Assembly (NCBI GenBank): GCA_964636355.1
Contig: CAZWRG010000002.1
Coordinates: forward strand, 32,746 to 96,745
DNA: 64,000 bases
Reading direction: 5' to 3'
From: an uncultured Candidatus Saccharibacteria bacterium
Lineage (GTDB): Bacteria > Patescibacteriota > Saccharimonadia > Saccharimonadales > JAGQNK01
How positions within the stretch are numbered: the stretch's first letter is position 1; every line of letters starts with the position of its first letter. Below are positions 41,056-55,006 of the stretch, piece by piece. The notes under the pieces were generated by a model. It was not told where the DNA came from. It ran no database searches and saw only the letters and a list, made by a program, of their open reading frames with translations. Position numbers and translations under genes: made by a program.

Positions 41056-42240
41056 ATGGCAGATACATTTGACAGAAGCAAGCCGCACGTTAATGTCGGA
41101 ACCATGGGTCACGTTGACCACGGTAAGACTACTTTGACTGCTGCTATCACGACTGTACTTGCAAAGAAACTTCCAAGTGCAGTAAACAAAAAAGTTGACT
41201 ACGATCAGATCGACAACGCTCCAGAAGAGAAAGCTCGTGGTATCACGATTGCTACTTCTCACAACGAATACGAATCAGAAAAGCGCCATTATGCGCACGT
41301 TGACATGCCAGGTCACGCTGACTACGTTAAGAACATGATTACCGGTGCCGCTCAGGTTGACGGTGCAATCTTGGTTGTTAGCGCAGCTGACGGTCCTATG
41401 CCGCAGACACGTGAGCACGTTTTGCTTGCTAAGCAGGTTGGTGTGCCAAAAATTCTAGTATTTATGAACAAAATGGATCTTGCTGATCCAGAGCTTGTTG
41501 AGCTGGTTGAGATGGACATTCGTGAACTACTCGCAAAGAATGGTTTTGACGAAGACGCTCCAATCATCAAGGGCTCAGCTGTTAAGGCTCTTGAAGGCGA
41601 CGCAGCCAACGAAGACGCTATCATGGAGCTGGTTAAAGCTATGGACGATTACGTTCCAGAGCCAGTTCGTGACCTAGACAAGCCATTCTTGATGCCAATC
41701 GAAGACGTTTTCTCAATTAAAGGCCGTGGTACTGTGGCCACTGGTCGTATCGAGCAAGGTGTTGTTAACCTTAACGATGAAGTAGAAATCGTTGGTATCC
41801 GTGACACTAAGAAAACTGTTGTAACTGGTGTTGAAATGTTCAAGAAAATGCTTGATCGTGGCCAGGCTGGTGACAACGTAGGTATCTTGCTGCGTGGTAT
41901 CGAGCGCGACGACATCGAACGTGGTCAAGTGCTTTGTAAGCCAGGTTCTGTTACCCCGCACACCGAATTTGACGCTGAAGTTTATATTCTTACCAAAGAA
42001 GAGGGTGGACGACACACTCCATTCTTTAAGGGCTACAAGCCACAGTTCTACATCCGTACAACTGATGTAACTGGTGAAGTCGAACTTCCAGCCGACAAAG
42101 AAATGGTTATGCCAGGCGACACCGTAACCTTTAAGGTTAAGCTGTTGGCTCCAATTGCTATGGAACAAGGTCTAAACTTCGCTATTCGTGAAGGTGGCCG
42201 AACCGTTGGTGCTGGTGTTGTAACCAAAATCAACAAATAA
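41056..42240 (+). CDS. tuf: elongation factor Tu
   Basis: [32 protein letters not shown] and NKMD. Confidence 0.98.
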
Positions 42241-42262
42241 TCGAAGACGATTATTGATTGCC

Positions 42263-42292
42263 GAAGAGCTGCTCCTTTAGGGGCGGCTCTTC
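42263..42292 (+). terminator. stem-loop after tuf
   Basis: gaagagctgc pairs with gcggctcttc, a 10-bp stem with one G-U pair. No clear T-run. Confidence 0.45.
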
Positions 42293-42324
42293 ACTATTCA
42301 TACCTACAGGTATAGAATGTAATT

Positions 42325-42567
42325 ATGCATCCCGGTGTTGTTTTCGAGCTTGAGCGGACAAAACAGCCAATCAAGGCAATTATTAGTCAAGCTCCGGAAG
42401 TTGTGGCAAATCAACACATTATGGTGCTAGTTGGGTTGATCCGGCTTAAACAGCTCAGGGCTGACAATTTTGTAGGCGCCGTAAGAATAAAATACGTCGA
42501 AAATCTTACGCATGATGAAATGAAGTATATCAATGACATGTCGCCACTTAATGACTCCGTTGAATAA
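42325..42567 (+). CDS. hypothetical 80-aa protein between tuf and rpsJ
   Basis: TAGAAT (42313-42318) lies 6 nt before the ATG, with no SD (leaderless geometry). No recognised motif. Confidence 0.4.
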   Translation: MHPGVVFELERTKQPIKAIISQAPEVVANQHIMVLVGLIRLKQLRADNFVGAVRIKYVENLTHDEMKYINDMSPLNDSVE

Positions 42568-42602
42568 CTAACCTAGCGTAACTCTAAAAATTAATTGAAT
42601 GC

Positions 42603-42631
42603 TTGGATAATCTTATTTATTGTTGTATAAT
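42603..42631 (+). promoter_or_regulatory. candidate promoter for rpsJ
   Basis: TTGGAT (42603-42608), N17, TATAAT (42626-42631). A ~160-nt structured leader follows. Confidence 0.55.
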
Positions 42632-42732
42632 CACTCCTGTAAATTAATCGTGGTGACTAAAAGTCGTCTGAATCGTTCTCTATAACGACCAGGAGATGTT
42701 ACACCACAAATTAGAAGATAGGAATTGGCAAA

Positions 42733-42756
42733 TGGAATTTAGAATTCTAAATTCCA
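42733..42756. repeat. 24-nt perfect palindrome in the rpsJ leader
   Basis: tggaatttagaattctaaattcca is its own reverse complement. Imperfect complementarity extends to ~42712-42780. Confidence 0.9.
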
Positions 42757-42798
42757 CAATCCATATTCCAAATTCTAGGACGACTGAAAGGAGTCAAG

Positions 42799-43152
42799 AT
42801 GGCAGAAGCAAAATCAACTAAGAAAGCTGAAGCTCCAGCAGCTAGCGGCAAGCAACGGATTAGAATCCGTCTAAAAGCTTATGATCACAAGGTCATTGAC
42901 CAATCCGCCAAGCAAATTATTGACACGGCGCTTAGAACCGGCGCTACGGTTGCCGGGCCAATTCCGCTGCCCACCAAGAAAACACTTTACACTGTCGTAA
43001 AAAGCCCTCACGTTTATAAAAAGGGTCGCGAACAGTTTGAAATGCGAGTTCACAAGCGCCTAATAGATGTTTTGGAGCCAACTCACAAGACAATCGATAG
43101 CTTGATGAATCTTAGCTTGCCAGCCGGATGCGATGCTGAAATCAAGATGTAG
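42799..43152 (+). CDS. rpsJ: 30S ribosomal protein S10 (N-terminally extended)
   Basis: [26 protein letters not shown]...GPIPLPT...[23 protein letters not shown]. Confidence 0.95.
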
Positions 43153-43172
43153 CCTACGATAAGCTCAAACTT

Positions 43173-43208
43173 AAAATCATCCATCCTTAACTGAATGGAT
43201 GATTTTTG
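43173..43208 (+). terminator. strong intrinsic terminator directly after rpsJ
   Basis: aaaatcatccat (43173-43184) pairs with atggatgatttt (43195-43206), 10-nt loop, T-run 43203-43207. Confidence 0.85.
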
Positions 43209-43225
43209 TTTAACATGTTATATTA

Positions 43226-43552
43226 ATGCTAATGGCTAAAAAACAAACATCTAAGCAAAAGAAAAAATCACCAGCTCGGCTGCGGCTAAGAAGCAGGGTT
43301 CGTAAAGAGCCACAAACTCCTGATGGGATTTATTTCTTAAAGCTGGTCATGTATCTAATTTTAGGCAGTTTATGGGTAAAAATTACTGATGGCAATACAG
43401 TTCAACTGCCAATACCAGTTGGGTTGTTGCTTGGTCTGGTATTTGCGGCTCATGATAAAGTTCAGCTCGATAAAAAAATCGGTTTTGCAATTCTACTGGT
43501 TGCCATGCTGGTCGGTTTTTGGGCCCCTTTTGGAATCTACATTGCTATTTAA
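43226..43552 (+). CDS. small membrane protein with Lys/Arg-rich N-terminus, inserted between rpsJ and rplC
   Basis: Three hydrophobic segments. An extended -10 TGtTATATT (43216-43224) lies 7 nt before the second ATG (43232), which may be the real, leaderless start. Confidence 0.55.
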   Translation: MLMAKKQTSKQKKKSPARLRLRSRVRKEPQTPDGIYFLKLVMYLILGSLWVKITDGNTVQLPIPVGLLLGLVFAAHDKVQLDKKIGFAILLVAMLVGFWAPFGIYIAI

Positions 43553-43575
43553 TCGAATGTAAAATAAACATCATA

Positions 43576-43605
43576 TTGACAGATGAGCTGGTTACATGCT
43601 AATCT
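43576..43605 (+). promoter_or_regulatory. candidate promoter for rplC and downstream S10-operon genes
   Basis: TTGACA (43576-43581), N18, TAATCT (43600-43605). Confidence 0.45.
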
Positions 43606-43630
43606 GTAACGGTCTATTAAATTTTCCAGA

Positions 43631-43705
43631 CTTGGTGAATGAGGTAGGTCTACAATTGTTCCACTATAGAACAGGGGTAGAAACCATCCATCACCAAGAA
43701 TTTTT
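43631..43705 (+). terminator. attenuator-like long-range stem plus T5 in the rplC leader
   Basis: cttggtga (43631-43638) pairs with tcaccaag (43691-43698), enclosing ~50 nt, followed by aattttt (T-run 43701-43705). Confidence 0.35.
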
Positions 43706-43749
43706 GTGTCATGGGACCAAAATTCTGGAGTAAAAAAGTAAAGGTTGCT

Positions 43750-44364
43750 ATGAAAGCATTAATTACAAGAAAGGTTGGCATGACCAGTACCATTGGTGAA
43801 GATGGTGTGGTGGCTGCTGTTACCTTGCTTTCCGCTAGTCCTTGCGTCATTACGCAAGTTAAGACCGATGAGATTGACGGCTACACAGCTGTCCAGATCG
43901 GCACCGAAGAGGCTAAAAACATGGGCAAGACTCAGGCTGGTCACTTCAAAAAATCAAAAGTTCAACCGAAGGTTGTTCGCGAAGTCCGAGTTGCTGAGAT
44001 TGACGAATCTTTGAAGGTCGGCGAATCAATCAATGTTGACACATTTGCTACTGGCGATGTTGTGTCAGTAACTGCCAACAGTAAAGGTAAGGGTTGGGCC
44101 GGCACAATTAAACGGCATAATTTTCACCGTCAGCGCAAAACTCATGGTGGAAAAGGAAATACTCGAAAACCAGGTTCAATTGGTTCAATGTATCCGCAGC
44201 ATATCTTAAAAGGTAAAAAGATGGCCGGCCAAATGGGCGCCGAACAAGTTACCGTCCGAAACCTAAAAGTTGCCTTTGTTGATCCCGAGTTAGGCATTAT
44301 TGGAGTTACCGGTGCTGTGCCTGGGCCTCGAAAAGGTATTGTTTTGATCAAGGAGGCCAAATAA
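43750..44364 (+). CDS. rplC: 50S ribosomal protein L3
   Basis: MKALITRKVGMTS...; start trimmed from 43711. GKGWAGTIKRHNF motif present. Confidence 0.95.
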   Translation: MKALITRKVGMTSTIGEDGVVAAVTLLSASPCVITQVKTDEIDGYTAVQIGTEEAKNMGKTQAGHFKKSKVQPKVVREVRVAEIDESLKVGESINVDTFATGDVVSVTANSKGKGWAGTIKRHNFHRQRKTHGGKGNTRKPGSIGSMYPQHILKGKKMAGQMGAEQVTVRNLKVAFVDPELGIIGVTGAVPGPRKGIVLIKEAK

Positions 44365-44468
44365 TGTTTCGTTTCACTCAACATCAGTCTCCAGTCTCCA
44401 GTCTCCAGTCTCTTGCGACTAGTGACAGGCGACTAGCGACTAAAACCGACCAAGGGGAGGTTTTGTAA
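44364..44468 (+). other. rplC-rplD spacer module: heptamer tandem repeats, also a 34-codon ORF bounded by TAATG at both ends
   Basis: 4x CAGTCTC (44385-44412), then CGACTAG-type heptamers (44416-44443). The ATG at 44364 shares A with the rplC TAA. The TAA at 44466-44468 shares A with the rplD ATG. Translation: MFRFTQHQSPVSSLQSLATSDRRLATKTDQGEVL. Confidence 0.6.
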
Positions 44469-45136
44469 TGGCAATAGCTACTTATACTAAAAGCGGTACC
44501 AAAGCCACAACCGCTGCGAAGCTTGATAAAAGCGTCTTTGGGGTTGCTGCTCAGAATCATCAATTATTAAAAAATGCATATCAGGCTTATTTGAATAACG
44601 GTCGCGGTAACTTTGCTCAAACCAAAAAGCGCGGCGAAGTTCGTGGTGGTGGCCGCAAGCCCTGGAAACAAAAAGGCACCGGCCGAGCTCGATTTGGTTC
44701 GATTCGTACTCCAATCTGGCGAGGTGGTGGTATAACTTTTGGCCCAACTGGCAATGAAAACTACAGCCACAAACTGAATGTTTCAGCTAAGCGCCAAGCA
44801 GTTCGACAAGCTCTAAGTCTGGCAGCTGATAAAGGCAAGATCATTGTTATTGAAGATCTAAAGATCAAAGATAACAAAACCGCTGAAGCATCTAAGTTGT
44901 TTAATAAGATTGGCATTAGTAGAAATGCTCTGGTGGTCGTCGCTGATAAGACAGAAGACTTGGTGAAATCAACCAGAAATCTTCAAAATATCAGCTTGGT
45001 CCAGGCTCGCTATCTGAATGTTTTTGACGTGTTAAATGCTGATCACATTGTTTTAACTAACGAGGCTCTAAAAGCTATCAGTGATTGGCTAGGCGCTAAA
45101 ACTGCCGCTGCTAAGAGTAAAGAGGGAGAAAAATAA
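44468..45136 (+). CDS. rplD: 50S ribosomal protein L4
   Basis: [36 protein letters not shown]. Confidence 0.95.
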
Positions 45137-45471
45137 TGGATAAGACTCTTGTACTTAAGCCGCGGGTCAGCGAGAAGGCTTATGGAATGAGCCAAGGAGA
45201 CGTCTATGTTTTTATGGTTCCAAAATCAGCCAGCAAACCGGCAATTGCCAGCGCTGTTAAGGCTCAGTTTGATGTAACTGTCACCGATGTAAATACAGTT
45301 GTAGTCAAGGGCAAAGCTAAGCGTACTATCAGAAAAGGCGGTCGACCAGTAATGGGCCGGCAGAGTGACTTTAAGAAAGCTTATGTGACCTTGAAAGAGG
45401 GTGATTCAATCACTGTTTTTGCGGCTGAAGATGATAACTCATCTAAGTCGACCAAAAAGGAGACTAAATAA
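45136..45471 (+). CDS. rplW: 50S ribosomal protein L23
   Basis: Operon position, L23-like sequence (LKPRVSEKAY...) and TAATG junctions on both sides. Confidence 0.9.
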   Translation: MDKTLVLKPRVSEKAYGMSQGDVYVFMVPKSASKPAIASAVKAQFDVTVTDVNTVVVKGKAKRTIRKGGRPVMGRQSDFKKAYVTLKEGDSITVFAAEDDNSSKSTKKETK

Positions 45472-46307
45472 TGGCCATTAAACAATACAAACCAACCACT
45501 CCAGGCCGACGTGGCATGACATCTCAGGATATGAGTGCTATCACTACAAAGAAGCCTCTGAAATCGCTGACTGTCATCAAGAAAAAGCACTCTGGTCGTA
45601 ACAATCAGGGGCGAATCACAACTCGTCATCGTGGCGGCGGCGTTCGTAAGTTTTACCGAATTATGAACTTTGGTCTACCTGCCGACACAACTGCAACCAT
45701 TGAACACATTGAATATGATCCAAACCGCAGCGCCCGAATTGCAAGAATTAAAGACCAGGCTGGCAAGTATCACTACATCCTTGCTTCAAAAGGTATGACT
45801 GTTGGTCAAAAAATCGTCAGCGGTGAAGAAGCACCTATCGAAAACGGCAATCGCCTGCCACTGAAGAACATTCCGGTTGGTAGCGTTATACATTCTATTG
45901 AGCTGCAGCCAGGTAAGGGCGGCCAAATTGTTCGCTCAGCTGGAGCCAGCGCTCAGCTTATGGCCAAAGAAGGTAACTACGCTCAGATCAAATTGCCGAG
46001 TGGTGAAGTTAGATTGGTAAACGTCAACTGTACAGCTAGTTTGGGATCAGTTGGTAATGAGCAGCATCAGAATATTAAAGTTGGTAAAGCCGGTCGTAAT
46101 CGTCGGAAAGGTATTCGTCCTGGTGTTCGTGGTGTAGTTATGAACGCAGCTGATCACCCGCACGGTGGTGGTGATGGTGGTCGTCACCGAATGGCCCGCG
46201 CGCCGGTCACCCCATGGGGTCAAAAGACTCTTGGCTTTAAGACCCGCCGACGCAAGAGCACATCTAATATGATTGTCCGAACCAGACATCAGGCGAAGAG
46301 GAAATAA
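45471..46307 (+). CDS. rplB: 50S ribosomal protein L2
   Basis: GRNNQGRITTRHRGGG and MNAADHPHGGG. Confidence 0.97.
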   Translation: MAIKQYKPTTPGRRGMTSQDMSAITTKKPLKSLTVIKKKHSGRNNQGRITTRHRGGGVRKFYRIMNFGLPADTTATIEHIEYDPNRSARIARIKDQAGKYHYILASKGMTVGQKIVSGEEAPIENGNRLPLKNIPVGSVIHSIELQPGKGGQIVRSAGASAQLMAKEGNYAQIKLPSGEVRLVNVNCTASLGSVGNEQHQNIKVGKAGRNRRKGIRPGVRGVVMNAADHPHGGGDGGRHRMARAPVTPWGQKTLGFKTRRRKSTSNMIVRTRHQAKRK

Positions 46308-46319
46308 GGAGCATATAAG

Positions 46320-46592
46320 ATGAGTAGATCACTGAAGAAAGGTCCATTTATTGATCCTAAGCTGGCTAAAAAAGTAGCCGCTTTAGGAGCTGAGGACCGC
46401 ACAATTATTAAGACCTGGGCCCGCGGGTCTACAATTCCGCCGGAATTTGTGGGTCGCACAATAGCTGTTCATAACGGTAAGGTTCATGTGCCAGTATTTA
46501 TCACAGAAAACATGGTTGGTCACAAACTCGGTGAGTTTAGCCCAACCCGTAAATTCCGCAAGCATGGCGGTAAGTTAGCGAAAGGTAAATAA
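46320..46592 (+). CDS. rpsS: 30S ribosomal protein S19
   Basis: [15 protein letters not shown]...[26 protein letters not shown]. Confidence 0.97.
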
Positions 46593-46594
46593 TA

Positions 46595-46699
46595 ATGGAA
46601 TTTAGAATATCGAATATGGAATTTAGAATGGGCTTCAATGAAGCTATTCCAACTTCTAACTTCCAGCATCTAACTTCTGCGACTGGAAGGAGCATCTAA
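46595..46699 (+). other. rpsS-rplV spacer module: GGAATTTAGAAT repeats and pyrimidine-rich arm, also a 34-codon ORF ending in TAATG
   Basis: ATGGAATTTAGAAT occurs at 46595-46608 and 46616-46629. Central hairpin gcttc-aat-gaagc lies at 46632-46644. The stop TAA (46697-46699) overlaps the rplV ATG. Translation: MEFRISNMEFRMGFNEAIPTSNFQHLTSATGRSI. Confidence 0.6.
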
Positions 46700-47091
46700 T
46701 GGCAGTTAAAGCAATTGCAAAAGGTGTTCGCATGAGCCCACGCAAAGTTGGTGTGGTTGCTGCATTGGTGCGCGGTAAATCAGTGGCTGACGCATTGACA
46801 ATTTTAGAGCACACTCCGCGACGGGCAGCTGAACCAGTTAAAAAGGTCATTGAGAGTGCTCGGGCTAACGCTGATCACAATCATAACTATAAGGCAGATT
46901 CCTTGGTGATCACCTCAATTAGCGTCACTCCGGGCGCTAGAATCAAGCGATATCGTCCAGCGGCTCATGGCCGAGCATTGCCTTTCATGCGCCGAACATC
47001 GCATATTTTTGTAGCGGTTGATGGCGAACAGCGTGCACCAAAGAAGCCAGCTTCTAAGAAGACCGAAGCCAAGAAAGAGGAGGCCAAGTAA
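46699..47091 (+). CDS. rplV: 50S ribosomal protein L22
   Basis: RMSPRKVGVVAALVRGKSVADALTILEHTP. Confidence 0.95.
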   Translation: MAVKAIAKGVRMSPRKVGVVAALVRGKSVADALTILEHTPRRAAEPVKKVIESARANADHNHNYKADSLVITSISVTPGARIKRYRPAAHGRALPFMRRTSHIFVAVDGEQRAPKKPASKKTEAKKEEAK

Positions 47092-47285
47092 TGGGTTTGT
47101 ATGGAAAAGAATTCTGGTCTGCTGAAATGGATGCAGCTTTGGTAAATGAAAAAGTTAACAGCGCATTTAGTCAGACTTTCAATAAGGATGACAGGGGAGA
47201 GCAGCCCGACAGTCTGGCTCTGCCAGCTGACGGCGCGCTGAGAGGGGATGTTCCCCTCTCAGGAACCGAACGGAGTGAGGTGTAG
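47091..47285 (+). CDS. 64-codon ORF inserted between rplV and rpsC (coding status uncertain; contains an 11-bp hairpin)
   Basis: The ATG overlaps the rplV stop (TAATG), and the stop lies 2 nt before the rpsC ATG. Perfect hairpin ctgagagggga-tgt-tcccctctcag at 47238-47262. Confidence 0.4.
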   Translation: MGLYGKEFWSAEMDAALVNEKVNSAFSQTFNKDDRGEQPDSLALPADGALRGDVPLSGTERSEV

Positions 47286-47287
47286 TT

Positions 47288-47920
47288 ATGGGACAAAAAG
47301 TTAATCCAATTTCAATGCGTCTCCAGGTCAATAAGAACTGGCGAAGCAAGTGGTTCGCAAACAAGCGTGAATACGCTAAGTTTTTGACCCAAGATCTAAA
47401 GGTTAGAAAATTGCTGCAGGATAAAATCGGTAGTCGCGGCGCAATCAACAAGATTGACATTGAGCGTTCACCAAATCTTGTTTCTGTAACCGTAACTACT
47501 GCTAAGGCCGGTGTTGTGATTGGCCGAGGCGGCGCCGGAGTTCAAGAGCTTAAAACAGCCATTGAAAAGATTTACGGTATTCCAGTGCGTGTCAACATCG
47601 AGGAAATTAAAAAACCTGAACTATACGCTAAGTTGGTTGCTGAAAACATTGCTCATCAGCTGGAACGCCGAATTGCTTTCAGACGAGCTACCAAACAAGC
47701 GGCTGCCGCAACCATGCGAGCTGGTGCGAAAGGTATTCGTATTGAAGTAGCTGGTCGTTTGGGTGGAGCAGAAATGTCGCGCCGCGAAAAAATCGTTGAA
47801 GGCTCCGTGCCACTTCACACCCTGCGAGCAGACATTGATTACCACGCCGCCAGAGCTCGTTATCCTGGCTCCGGTATCATCGGCGTTAAAGTATGGATCT
47901 ATAAAGGGGAGGTAGAATAA
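47288..47920 (+). CDS. rpsC: 30S ribosomal protein S3
   Basis: [12 protein letters not shown]..., KH domain and [10 protein letters not shown]. Confidence 0.97.
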
Positions 47921-50819: not shown

Positions 50820-50911
50820 AGGAGTAGAAAGTAAAAAGTAGAAAGTTCATAAAGTAATAACTTTGAAACTTTTAACTTGATAACTTTATACTTTCGACTA
50901 AAGGAGAAAAG
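50820..50911 (+). repeat. rpsH-rplF spacer module: AAAGT-repeat arm / ACTTT-repeat arm imperfect hairpin, non-coding
   Basis: gtagaaagtaaaaagtagaaagttcataaagt ... aactttgaaacttttaacttgataactttatactttc. It ends cgactaaaggag before the ATG at 50912. No start codon and no open frame. Confidence 0.7.
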
Positions 50912-54894: not shown

Positions 54895-54898
54895 AATT

Positions 54899-55006
54899 AT
54901 GAATAATTTTATCAAGTTAAAAGTTAAAAGTGTAAAGGTAAAAGTAGCTCAACTTTCTACTTTCAACTTTCTACTTTCAACTCAAGTTACCGGAGGTAAC
55001 AAATAA
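54899..55006 (+). other. rpmJ-rpsM spacer module: purine-rich / pyrimidine-rich arms, also a 35-codon ORF ending in TAATG
   Basis: Arm aagttaaaagttaaaagtgtaaaggtaaaagtag faces arm aactttctactttcaactttctactttcaactcaagtt. ATG at 54899; the TAA at 55004-55006 overlaps the rpsM ATG. Translation: MNNFIKLKVKSVKVKVAQLSTFNFLLSTQVTGGNK. Confidence 0.6.

Follow-up and report, generated by a model that had tools for sequence, protein, structure and literature searches.

A repeat cassette with a stop-start-coupled reading frame between rpsS and rplV in a Saccharibacteria ribosomal-protein operon

Few gene arrays are as conserved and as tightly coupled as ribosomal-protein operons, and recurring, lineage-specific inserts of 100-125 nt placed exactly at their stop-start overlaps are unexpected. 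An insert of this kind separates rpsS (S19) from rplV (L22) in the stretch of DNA analysed here, a 64 kb window of one genome that encodes the Saccharibacteria (TM7) S10-spc-alpha ribosomal-protein superoperon in the order tuf, rpsJ, rplC, rplD, rplW, rplB, rpsS, rplV, rpsC and onward. What is this spacer, and how can translation pass from one gene to the next across it? From the comparison of sequences, the spacer is probably a dispersed intercistronic cassette, and a reading frame that runs through it, here called the relay frame, would preserve the stop-start translational coupling of the two genes.

A 106-nt insertion at a stop-start junction

The rpsS gene ends with a TAA at 46590-46592 of the window, which is followed by a second in-frame TAA (46593-46595), and the ATG of rplV lies at 46699-46701, leaving a gap of 106 nt (46593-46698; all features of the spacer are given on the + strand). 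The gap contains a 5' arm of five purine-rich 7-nt units (atggaat ttagaat atcgaat atggaat ttagaat, 46595-46629), in which ATGGAATTTAGAAT is present twice (46595-46608 and 46616-46629), an apical hairpin (gcttc-aat-gaagc, 46632-46644), a 3' arm of pyrimidine-rich 7-nt units (...ttccaac ttctaac ttccagc atctaac ttct, 46645-46678), and a conserved tail, GCGACTGGAAGGAGC (46679-46693). Within the tail, 6 nt ahead of the rplV ATG, lies the Shine-Dalgarno (SD) sequence GGAAGGAG (46685-46692). The units of the 3' arm also form a 7/14-nt repeat, and this arm is imperfectly complementary to the 5' arm. Tandem Repeats Finder (TRF) reports period-7 arrays at 46598-46629 and 46647-46678, and the identity at lag 7 is 0.48-0.54 in this copy. 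Gap length and doubled repeat are exactly as an earlier sequence-only reading of the window had given them. The central hairpin that it described is present, but it has only 5 bp and is not conserved: an A->T change in L001, a strain variant of the same species, breaks it.

For comparison, 80 species-level loci containing L22 were fetched, all of them from metagenome-assembled genomes (MAGs) or genomes of Saccharibacteria/Saccharimonadales, with about 10 kb compared per related genome, and ribosomal-protein genes were placed by tblastn in 83 loci. The median junction gap in these 83 loci is -1 nt. Most genomes have a stop-start overlap or a few nt at every junction, and gaps of about 100-125 nt appear sporadically, in differing genomes and at differing junctions. 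S19 and L22 are -4 to +14 nt apart in almost every one of the 80 related loci, the commonest form being an overlapping TAATG (...aagTAATGgca); the window, its strain variants and one relative (L047) have about 110 nt instead. Because the orthologous junctions of most relatives are a bare TAATG, the rpsS-rplV spacer is an insertion and not an ancestral feature. Among the strain variants it diverges at about the rate of the flanking genes.

A family of cassettes with a conserved tail

The spacer is a member of a repeat family, designated class A. From 5' to 3', a class A insert consists of two adjacent inverted arrays of ~7-nt repeats, which form an imperfect hairpin, a tail GCGACYRNARGGAGC (consensus GCGAC-YRNA-RGGAGC) with a strong SD site, 5-7 nt, and a start codon. 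A scan with the tail motif gave 15 matches, including 46679 in the rpsS-rplV spacer and 42780 in the rpsJ leader of the window, and all 15 are on the coding strand, each immediately preceded by a repeat hairpin and immediately followed by a start codon. Identity at lag 7 is 0.53 compared with ~0.26 at other lags, and 7 is the strongest lag in 18 of 19 inserts. What the family shares is the tail, the orientation of the tail and the 7-nt periodicity of the arms.

According to TRF, the 64 kb of the window contain exactly five sites with paired period-7 arrays, all of them within the S10-spc-alpha operon: the rpsJ leader, rplC-rplD, rpsS-rplV, rpsH-rplF and rpmJ-rpsM. All copies lie on the + strand. 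The rpsJ-leader copy (42710-42798) is located between a conserved leader motif, which ends at 42709, and the S10 ATG (42799). It carries the tail ACGACTGAAAGGAG (42780-42793) and, as the sequence-only reading had noticed, the arm 12-mer GGAATTTAGAAT as the core of a palindrome, in which it stands twice (42734-42755). With two further occurrences in the rpsS-rplV spacer, this 12-mer is found four times in 64 kb, where 0.51 are expected by chance; 1 of 100 shuffles reached four. The leader cassette is present in 2 of 36 genomes, and elsewhere the leader runs directly into an AAGGAG SD. The rplC-rplD copy (44365-44467) begins with its pyrimidine arm (CAGTCTC x4 / GCGACTA) and matches the rpsS-rplV insert in architecture: both of its arms are 7-nt arrays, its 3' end carries an SD, and a relay open reading frame (ORF) of 34 codons extends from TAATG to TAATG. 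Its repeat sequence differs, the CAGTCTC arm family being unrelated to GGAATTTAGAAT; both the likeness and the difference had been stated before. The rpsH-rplF copy (50820-50911) has arms of the AGTAGAAAGT type and the tail CGACTAAAGGAG, and the rpmJ-rpsM copy (54895-55005), whose arms complement the rpsH-rplF arm family, contains a 35-codon relay ORF from an ATG at 54899 to a TAATG.

The arm families are thus paired within the window: GGAATTTAGAAT is found in the rpsJ leader and at S19-L22, and AGTAGAAAGT is common to S8-L6 and, on the other strand, L36-S13. Together with CAGTCTC these make three unrelated arm families in the window, and other genomes have different ones. A core, TAGAATGGGCTTCA, is common to the S19-L22 copy of the window and the L3-L4 insert of L047, which marks the two as homologous copies at different junctions. 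Another relative, L010, carries six copies with ~88% identity at six junctions. Over the 65 related genomes in which carriers were counted, class A was found in six, usually at junctions other than those of the window, and the nearest relatives are mostly empty. The sequence-only reading had named a lack of conserved frame or pairing in orthologous spacers as a refutation, and on this point the outcome is mixed: such spacers are mostly absent, but frame and architecture are kept family-wide, at other junctions and in other genomes.

The relay frame

The relay ORF of the rpsS-rplV copy (MEFRISNMEFRMGFNEAIPTSNFQHLTSATGRSI, 34 codons, 46595-46699, + strand) begins 3 nt past the rpsS stop codon, within TAATAATG, so that its ATG (46595) overlaps the second TAA. 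Its own stop, a TAA at 46697-46699, overlaps the ATG of rplV in a TAATG at 46697-46701. As had been reported, the other two frames of the spacer are closed. The frame is open in three strain variants despite three nonsynonymous and two synonymous changes.

Of the 23 class A junction copies across the family, 22 have an ATG within -4 to +4 nt of the upstream stop, and the frame of 32-53 codons that this ATG opens ends at a stop placed -2 to +7 nt relative to the downstream start. When the interiors are shuffled by dinucleotides, 5.5 such coupled frames in 23 are expected, and reverse-complementing the interiors gives 8. Coupled open frames are therefore in excess of chance at the family level. 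The gap length is 1 mod 3 in 15 of the 23 copies, which is what two -1 overlaps in series require. In the L010 copies the spacing from SD to start is fixed at 6 nt, and the frames end by TGATG, ATGA, GTGA or ATGTTAA, depending on the second codon of the downstream gene. The relay ATG is usually found behind a native SD embedded in the last codons of the upstream gene.

The relay peptide itself is not what is conserved: the copies encode peptides of low complexity that follow from their arm repeats and are unrelated to one another, the frame passes through the tail as GCG-ACN or as CGA-CTG, depending on the copy (a TGA stands in the third frame), and the changes between strains include nonsynonymous ones. 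A Pfam scan of the relay peptides and neighbouring small ORFs likewise gave no family; one unrelated neighbouring ORF had a match below threshold only, which we regard as chance.

Why, then, should a frame be kept open? In relatives, rpsS and rplV overlap as TAATG, and L22 synthesis would thus be coupled to that of S19 by termination-reinitiation. An untranslated distance of ~20 nt nearly abolishes reinitiation coupling in E. coli and Haloferax (PMC10666635), so that a 106-nt insertion at the TAATG would uncouple L22 from S19. Because the inserts carry an ATG on the upstream stop and a stop on the downstream start, behind the SD of the cassette, we propose that they act as a ribosome relay. 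The cassette would be transcribed inside the S10 operon mRNA. A ribosome ending rpsS at the UAA 46590-46592 would restart 3 nt on, at the AUG 46595, translate 34 codons across both arms and thereby melt the hairpin, terminate at the UAA 46697-46699, which overlaps the AUG 46699, and restart on rplV with the help of the cassette SD 6 nt upstream. The 34-residue peptide would be a by-product, and selection would keep the frame open since an untranslated gap of 106 nt breaks coupling. We infer that the relay frame is translated and needed for L22 expression. The suggestion of an inserted repeat module with a translationally coupled mini-ORF, already made from this sequence by itself, is supported, the junctions of relatives being bare. 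If the proposal is correct, the near-universal bridging frames from ATG to stop are natural evidence of selection on termination-reinitiation coupling in organisms that are hard to culture.

The module in other operons and phages

Metagenome contigs were scanned for GCGACTGRAAGGAGC, which gave at least 120 evaluable matches. Among the 120 matches listed, 9 are immediately preceded by a period-7/8 array, compared with 0.8% of background windows, and none of these 120 has such an array downstream of the tail. The carrier contigs have a GC content of 0.29-0.68. From the flanking translations, the modules are located between atpD and atpC, among genes for subunits of carbon monoxide dehydrogenase/acetyl-CoA synthase (CODH/ACS), between cheW and cheC, after groEL, before rmlA, between genes for the large and iron-sulfur subunits of a nitrite/nitrate-oxidoreductase-like enzyme, and in a phage-like region. 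The same scan of viral contigs gave ~15 more modules, which lie between phage structural genes, again by reading translations: portal, capsid-like, tape-measure and tail genes. One viral contig has three copies with common arms. A search of annotated phages with a capsid-like protein adjoining a module gave no match. Two pairs of orthologues (L098/L190 and L151/L184) retain position and tail, and their arms have changed by gain and loss of units. Judging from GC content and gene content, we infer that several phyla are involved.

A relay-like frame is present in 3 of 23 modules from other operons and phage contigs, and none of the three starts with ATG. The cassette is therefore general, and the relay frame specific to the context of the Saccharibacteria ribosomal-protein operon. 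Copies in unrelated operons and in structural operons of phages suggest an intercistronic cassette of wide distribution. It is possible, though we put this forward only tentatively, that the heptamer hairpin with GCGACUGAAAGGAGC is a horizontally spreading "ribosome-binding-site cassette", shared across phyla and phages, that was domesticated into a coupling-restoring relay ORF in lineages depending on stop-start overlaps, the ribosomal-protein operons of Saccharibacteria being an example. If so, such a cassette lands just before start codons or SD sites and supplies a new ribosome-binding site (RBS).

A side observation concerns the 15-mer GCGACTGAAAGGAGC, which is also located at the hairpin apex in two further families of dispersed repeats. 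The first of these, GTCATTGCGA-15mer-GAAGCAATC, has a covarying stem, and the second, AAATCCGGAGA-15mer-TCGTAGGATTT, is from a giant-virus MAG. Hairpins with the 15-mer occur in the metagenome loci L111, L112, L129, L132, L135, L138, L152, L167, L178 and L203 and in viral loci from IMGVR_UViG_GVMAG-S-1101165-105. This suggests that the 15-mer may be a module in its own right.

Alternative explanations

Several points weigh against the interpretation of the spacer as a coupling relay. For the rpsS-rplV copy by itself, a coupled open frame has a P of ~0.19 in shuffles, so that the significance of the open frame rests on the family and not on this copy. The 23 class A inserts were picked by eye on their architecture, and the six L010 copies are related by descent, which brings the effective sample nearer to 18 than to 23. 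The rpsH-rplF copy of the window is the sole copy there without an open relay frame. The pairing between the arms, which had been described from the letters, is real, with 28 Watson-Crick pairs compared with 11 mismatches, but it is weak: the spacer folds with a minimum free energy of -23 to -25 kcal/mol at z = -1.0 to -1.8, which is not significant, and it shows no G-U signature. Moreover, the strong SD of the cassette might let downstream genes be translated without any relay. The direct repeats that flank some copies (TAATG..TAATG, CACGATGA..CACGATGA, ACATG..ACATG) vary in length and are no evidence of target-site duplication, as they coincide with TAATG/ATGA overlaps and the L010 copies do not have them. 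A possible route of spread is recombination between similar SD-N-TAATG junctions, or the action of an enzyme on hairpin DNA.

The hairpin might instead be the functional part within the polycistronic mRNA, as a site of processing by RNase III or otherwise, as a 3'/5' stabiliser, or as a ribosomal-protein operator that adjusts the synthesis of L22 and of downstream products, with the frame being secondary. Most family members do fold better than shuffles (z -2 to -5), and arms that are wholly different between copies are still complementary. The rpsJ-leader copy stands where no upstream gene needs coupling, modules in other operons and in phage late operons occur without an open frame, and the 3' arm of the rpsS-rplV copy can pair with the SD (CUUCU with GGAAG). 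However, in roughly half of the copies the fold of the antisense strand is at least as good, and the rpsS-rplV fold does not reach significance. An alignment of arm against arm over the family, with 694 positions, contains 538 Watson-Crick pairs, 106 transversion mismatches, 33 A-C and 17 G-U; with no excess of sense-strand wobble pairs, an RNA-level role of the hairpin is unsupported and the palindromy looks like a DNA-level property. Rfam gave no relevant match, either for the whole window at the gathering threshold or for 42200-47400 at E <= 5. The inserts are not conserved at orthologous positions, whereas known ribosomal-protein operators are, and a functional hairpin leaves the 22 of 23 ATG-started coupled frames unexplained. 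We therefore consider an RNA element unlikely. If the palindrome acts at the DNA level, as single-stranded DNA or a cruciform, the cassette could be a non-autonomous REP/PATE-like mobile element with no host function, moved by a hairpin-recognising enzyme or by recombination between similar SD-stop-start junctions; this reading is about where the copies came from and how they spread, and it is compatible with a relay. Such an element would account for the sporadic, all-or-none distribution with several related copies per carrier genome, for homologous copies at differing junctions in differing genomes, for arm mismatches that are symmetric between strands, and for tail and periodic hairpin in contigs with a GC content of 0.29-0.68 as well as in phages, where one contig has three copies; short direct repeats flank some copies. 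Still, no transposase or partner gene was seen within the ~10 kb per genome, and the flanking repeats are confounded with the stop/start overlap. The outer ends of the cassette (ATG... / ...GGAGC-N6) are not inverted copies of each other, the inverted arrays being internal, and beyond these no terminal inverted repeats of the MITE (miniature inverted-repeat transposable element) type are seen. The single orientation to the downstream gene is also unlike typical MITEs and REPs, although selection could give that bias. A mobile element without host function seems quite improbable.

That the spacer is ordinary, with repeats as slippage noise, a frame open by chance and an incidental promoter-like match or an internal promoter, would agree with the single-copy P value given above and with the fact that heptanucleotide tandem repeats are the commonest class of long simple repeats in prokaryotes (PMC4679880). 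The 5' arm also contains TTTAGA-17-TAGAAT, a 9/12 promoter-like match (46601-46629). An internal promoter was rejected, as promoter-like sites number 26 with 20.6 +/- 5.6 expected, which is no enrichment; the arms of the other copies have no such match, and no terminator-like site was found in the spacer. The 15-nt tail recurs across genomes and the family-level statistics oppose chance, so that this explanation is largely refuted already by the family and is very unlikely to hold. A functional small protein encoded by the 34-codon frame is hardly credible. It would fit the ATG start with an SD-like AAAGG upstream, the tight coupling at both ends and the persistence of the frame in strain variants, and some relatives do encode small hydrophobic peptides at S8-L6. 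However, the peptides of different copies are unrelated and of low complexity, conserved tail nucleotides are read in two frames, Pfam has no match, and nonsynonymous changes between strains are at least as many as synonymous ones (3 vs 2).

Some more specific proposals on the hairpin and the tail were also given up or, in the case of the tail, kept as a lead. The hairpin as an RNA optimised by selection was dropped, with no sense-strand signal in folding or in wobble asymmetry. An anti-SD switch, in which the 3' arm covers the SD, is seen in the rpsS-rplV copy alone and is not general. The tail as a stable mini-hairpin with tandem G-A pairs (GC-GA-CU-GAA-AG-GA-GC) reaches only -1.3 kcal/mol and z ~-1 by nearest-neighbour rules. 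Covariation within the six L010 copies yielded no compensatory pairs, these copies being too similar. Heptamer arrays and palindromy together look like a property of the DNA, that is, of slippage-prone repeats and inverted duplication, and not like an RNA tuned for pairing; the palindromy could have come about by inverted duplication of slippage-prone heptamer arrays, or through a single-stranded or cruciform form of the DNA.

Relation to known repeats and coupling systems

The cassette is related to known intergenic palindromic and heptamer repeats, and the module of hairpin plus SD itself is in neither Rfam nor the literature searched: searches on the tail sequence, on intergenic repeats of Saccharibacteria/Patescibacteria and on coupling with MITEs returned no description of it. 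Short, non-coding, palindromic repeats that are dispersed, co-transcribed between operon genes and present in several related copies per genome are familiar as REP/BIME/REPIN sequences and as MITEs (ERIC/RU, Correia, RUP). The cassette resembles them in being short, palindromic and dispersed, in its location between operon genes and in having several related copies per genome. REP and REPIN sequences conserve an imperfect palindrome of 20-40 nt, whereas the cassette conserves only its non-palindromic tail, the arms being variable tandem heptamers. Unlike REPs and MITEs it is found in strictly one orientation, with a conserved RBS-bearing 3' end. No RAYT or transposase was seen in the 64 kb of the host and ~10 kb per relative. 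Rickettsia palindromic elements (RPE) are selfish palindromic inserts that lie in frame inside genes and become part of proteins. The analogy is that of a selfish palindromic insert surviving by an open frame; the cassette differs in that it lies between genes and has an ORF of its own, which begins on the stop codon of one neighbour and ends on the start codon of the other.

In the synthetic "bicistronic design" and in natural leader-ORF coupling, a short upstream ORF ends on the next start codon (TAATG) with the SD inside the ORF, and translating ribosomes unwind local structure and reinitiate. The requirement for coupling is documented in PMC10666635 and also in PMC12548453. The relay inserts would be a natural counterpart of this design, from which they differ as natural insertions with two overlaps in series that relay between two essential genes. 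Autoregulatory operators of ribosomal proteins, such as the E. coli S10 leader with L4 and the spc operator with S8, are likewise structured, in the operon and beside an RBS. However, each of these operators keeps to a single orthologous position, where it is conserved, and imitates a site in rRNA, whereas the cassette is sporadic, variable in sequence and also found in unrelated operons and phages.

In repeat unit the cassette is like the heptamer repeats of the TAACTGA type, known from Beggiatoaceae, Cyanobacteria and Bacteroidetes, which immediately precede start codons and, in Beggiatoaceae, are also found inside ribosomal-protein operons, most of these regions having no canonical RBS; their phylogenetic distribution is sporadic, suggesting transfer (PMC4679880). 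The cassette shares with these TAACTGA repeats and with the STRR sequences of cyanobacteria the 7-nt unit in few tandem copies, the intergenic position just before start codons, the occurrence inside ribosomal-protein operons and the sporadic distribution. It has in addition a second, complementary inverted array that makes a hairpin, a conserved SD-bearing tail and a through-running coupled frame, and in place of one fixed heptamer its unit varies between copies. What heptamer repeats do beside start codons, a question since the STRR and TAACTGA repeats were described, becomes directly testable with reporters.

Class B inserts and the rpsJ leader

A second class of junction insert, class B, is 100-133 nt long and was found at various junctions in 10 of the 65 genomes. 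Its invariant segments are GAGCAGCC, GCGCG and UGAGA...UCUCA, and its two hairpins show strong covariation, with 24 pairs, 13 of which have compensatory changes. A relay ORF from ATG to TAATG is present in 16 of 17 cases, and several copies are flanked on either side by a duplicated SD-TAATG junction. Class B junction inserts were located in L008, L010, L021, L025, L029, L049, L051, L057, L061, L078 and L081. The rplV-rpsC spacer of the window (47092-47287) holds a divergent class B copy, with its core at 47194-47262 inside a 64-codon frame; this copy is read in a different frame, and the spacer is identical in all three strain variants. Class B had no Rfam match; all Rfam scans together, of the whole window at the gathering threshold and of 42200-47400 and two class B loci at E <= 5, returned tRNAs and chance matches only. 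The class B pattern was not found in viral contigs. We consider class B a candidate novel structured RNA. If the ribosome-binding-site cassette outlined above is real, then together with class B it would mean that tightly packed essential operons have been colonised by a whole set of elements that specialise in the junctions where translation initiates.

The conserved leader motif that precedes the rpsJ-leader cassette, CGUGGUGACUAAAAGUCGU-[variable hairpin]-AGAUGUUACAUCACAA (42649-42709 in the window), is found just before the S10 SD in 17 related loci. It has 16 predicted pairs, eight of them with compensatory changes, and no Rfam match. A promoter-like sequence, TGGATA-16-TATAAT, is located upstream of rpsJ at 42604-42631. 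We regard the motif as a candidate for an autoregulatory leader of the S10 operon in Saccharibacteria.

Other junctions of the operon

Further sequences of differing kinds are found at other junctions. The rpsJ-rplC (S10-L3) junction is highly variable in length across Saccharibacteria, with 150-2100 nt in relatives. In the window (43153-43710) it contains a terminator-like hairpin (43173-43206) and an ORF of 108 residues (43226-43552), apparently of membrane type, for which Pfam has no family. The L2-S19 junction has 230-440 nt in ~20 of 80 relatives. Between rplB and rpsS, the strain variant L001 has an 89-codon ORF (2027-2296) that is coupled at both ends and is missing from the window (46308-46319); this ORF between L2 and S19 has no match in Pfam.

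At S8-L6, several relatives (L007, L008, L010, L039, L068 and L077) encode a small hydrophobic peptide of 30-40 residues, for example at 8845-8960 of L077, and the corresponding rpsH-rplF junction of the window is occupied by the hairpin cassette. One of these S8-L6 peptides begins with MEFRII..., which resembles the relay peptide of the window (MEFRIS...). Inserts of 43-61 nt that run from TAATG to TAATG, with a small hairpin and a 20-codon frame, are present in L029 (2672-2738 and 3820-3886) and at several junctions of L052, and may represent a third, mini class of junction insert.

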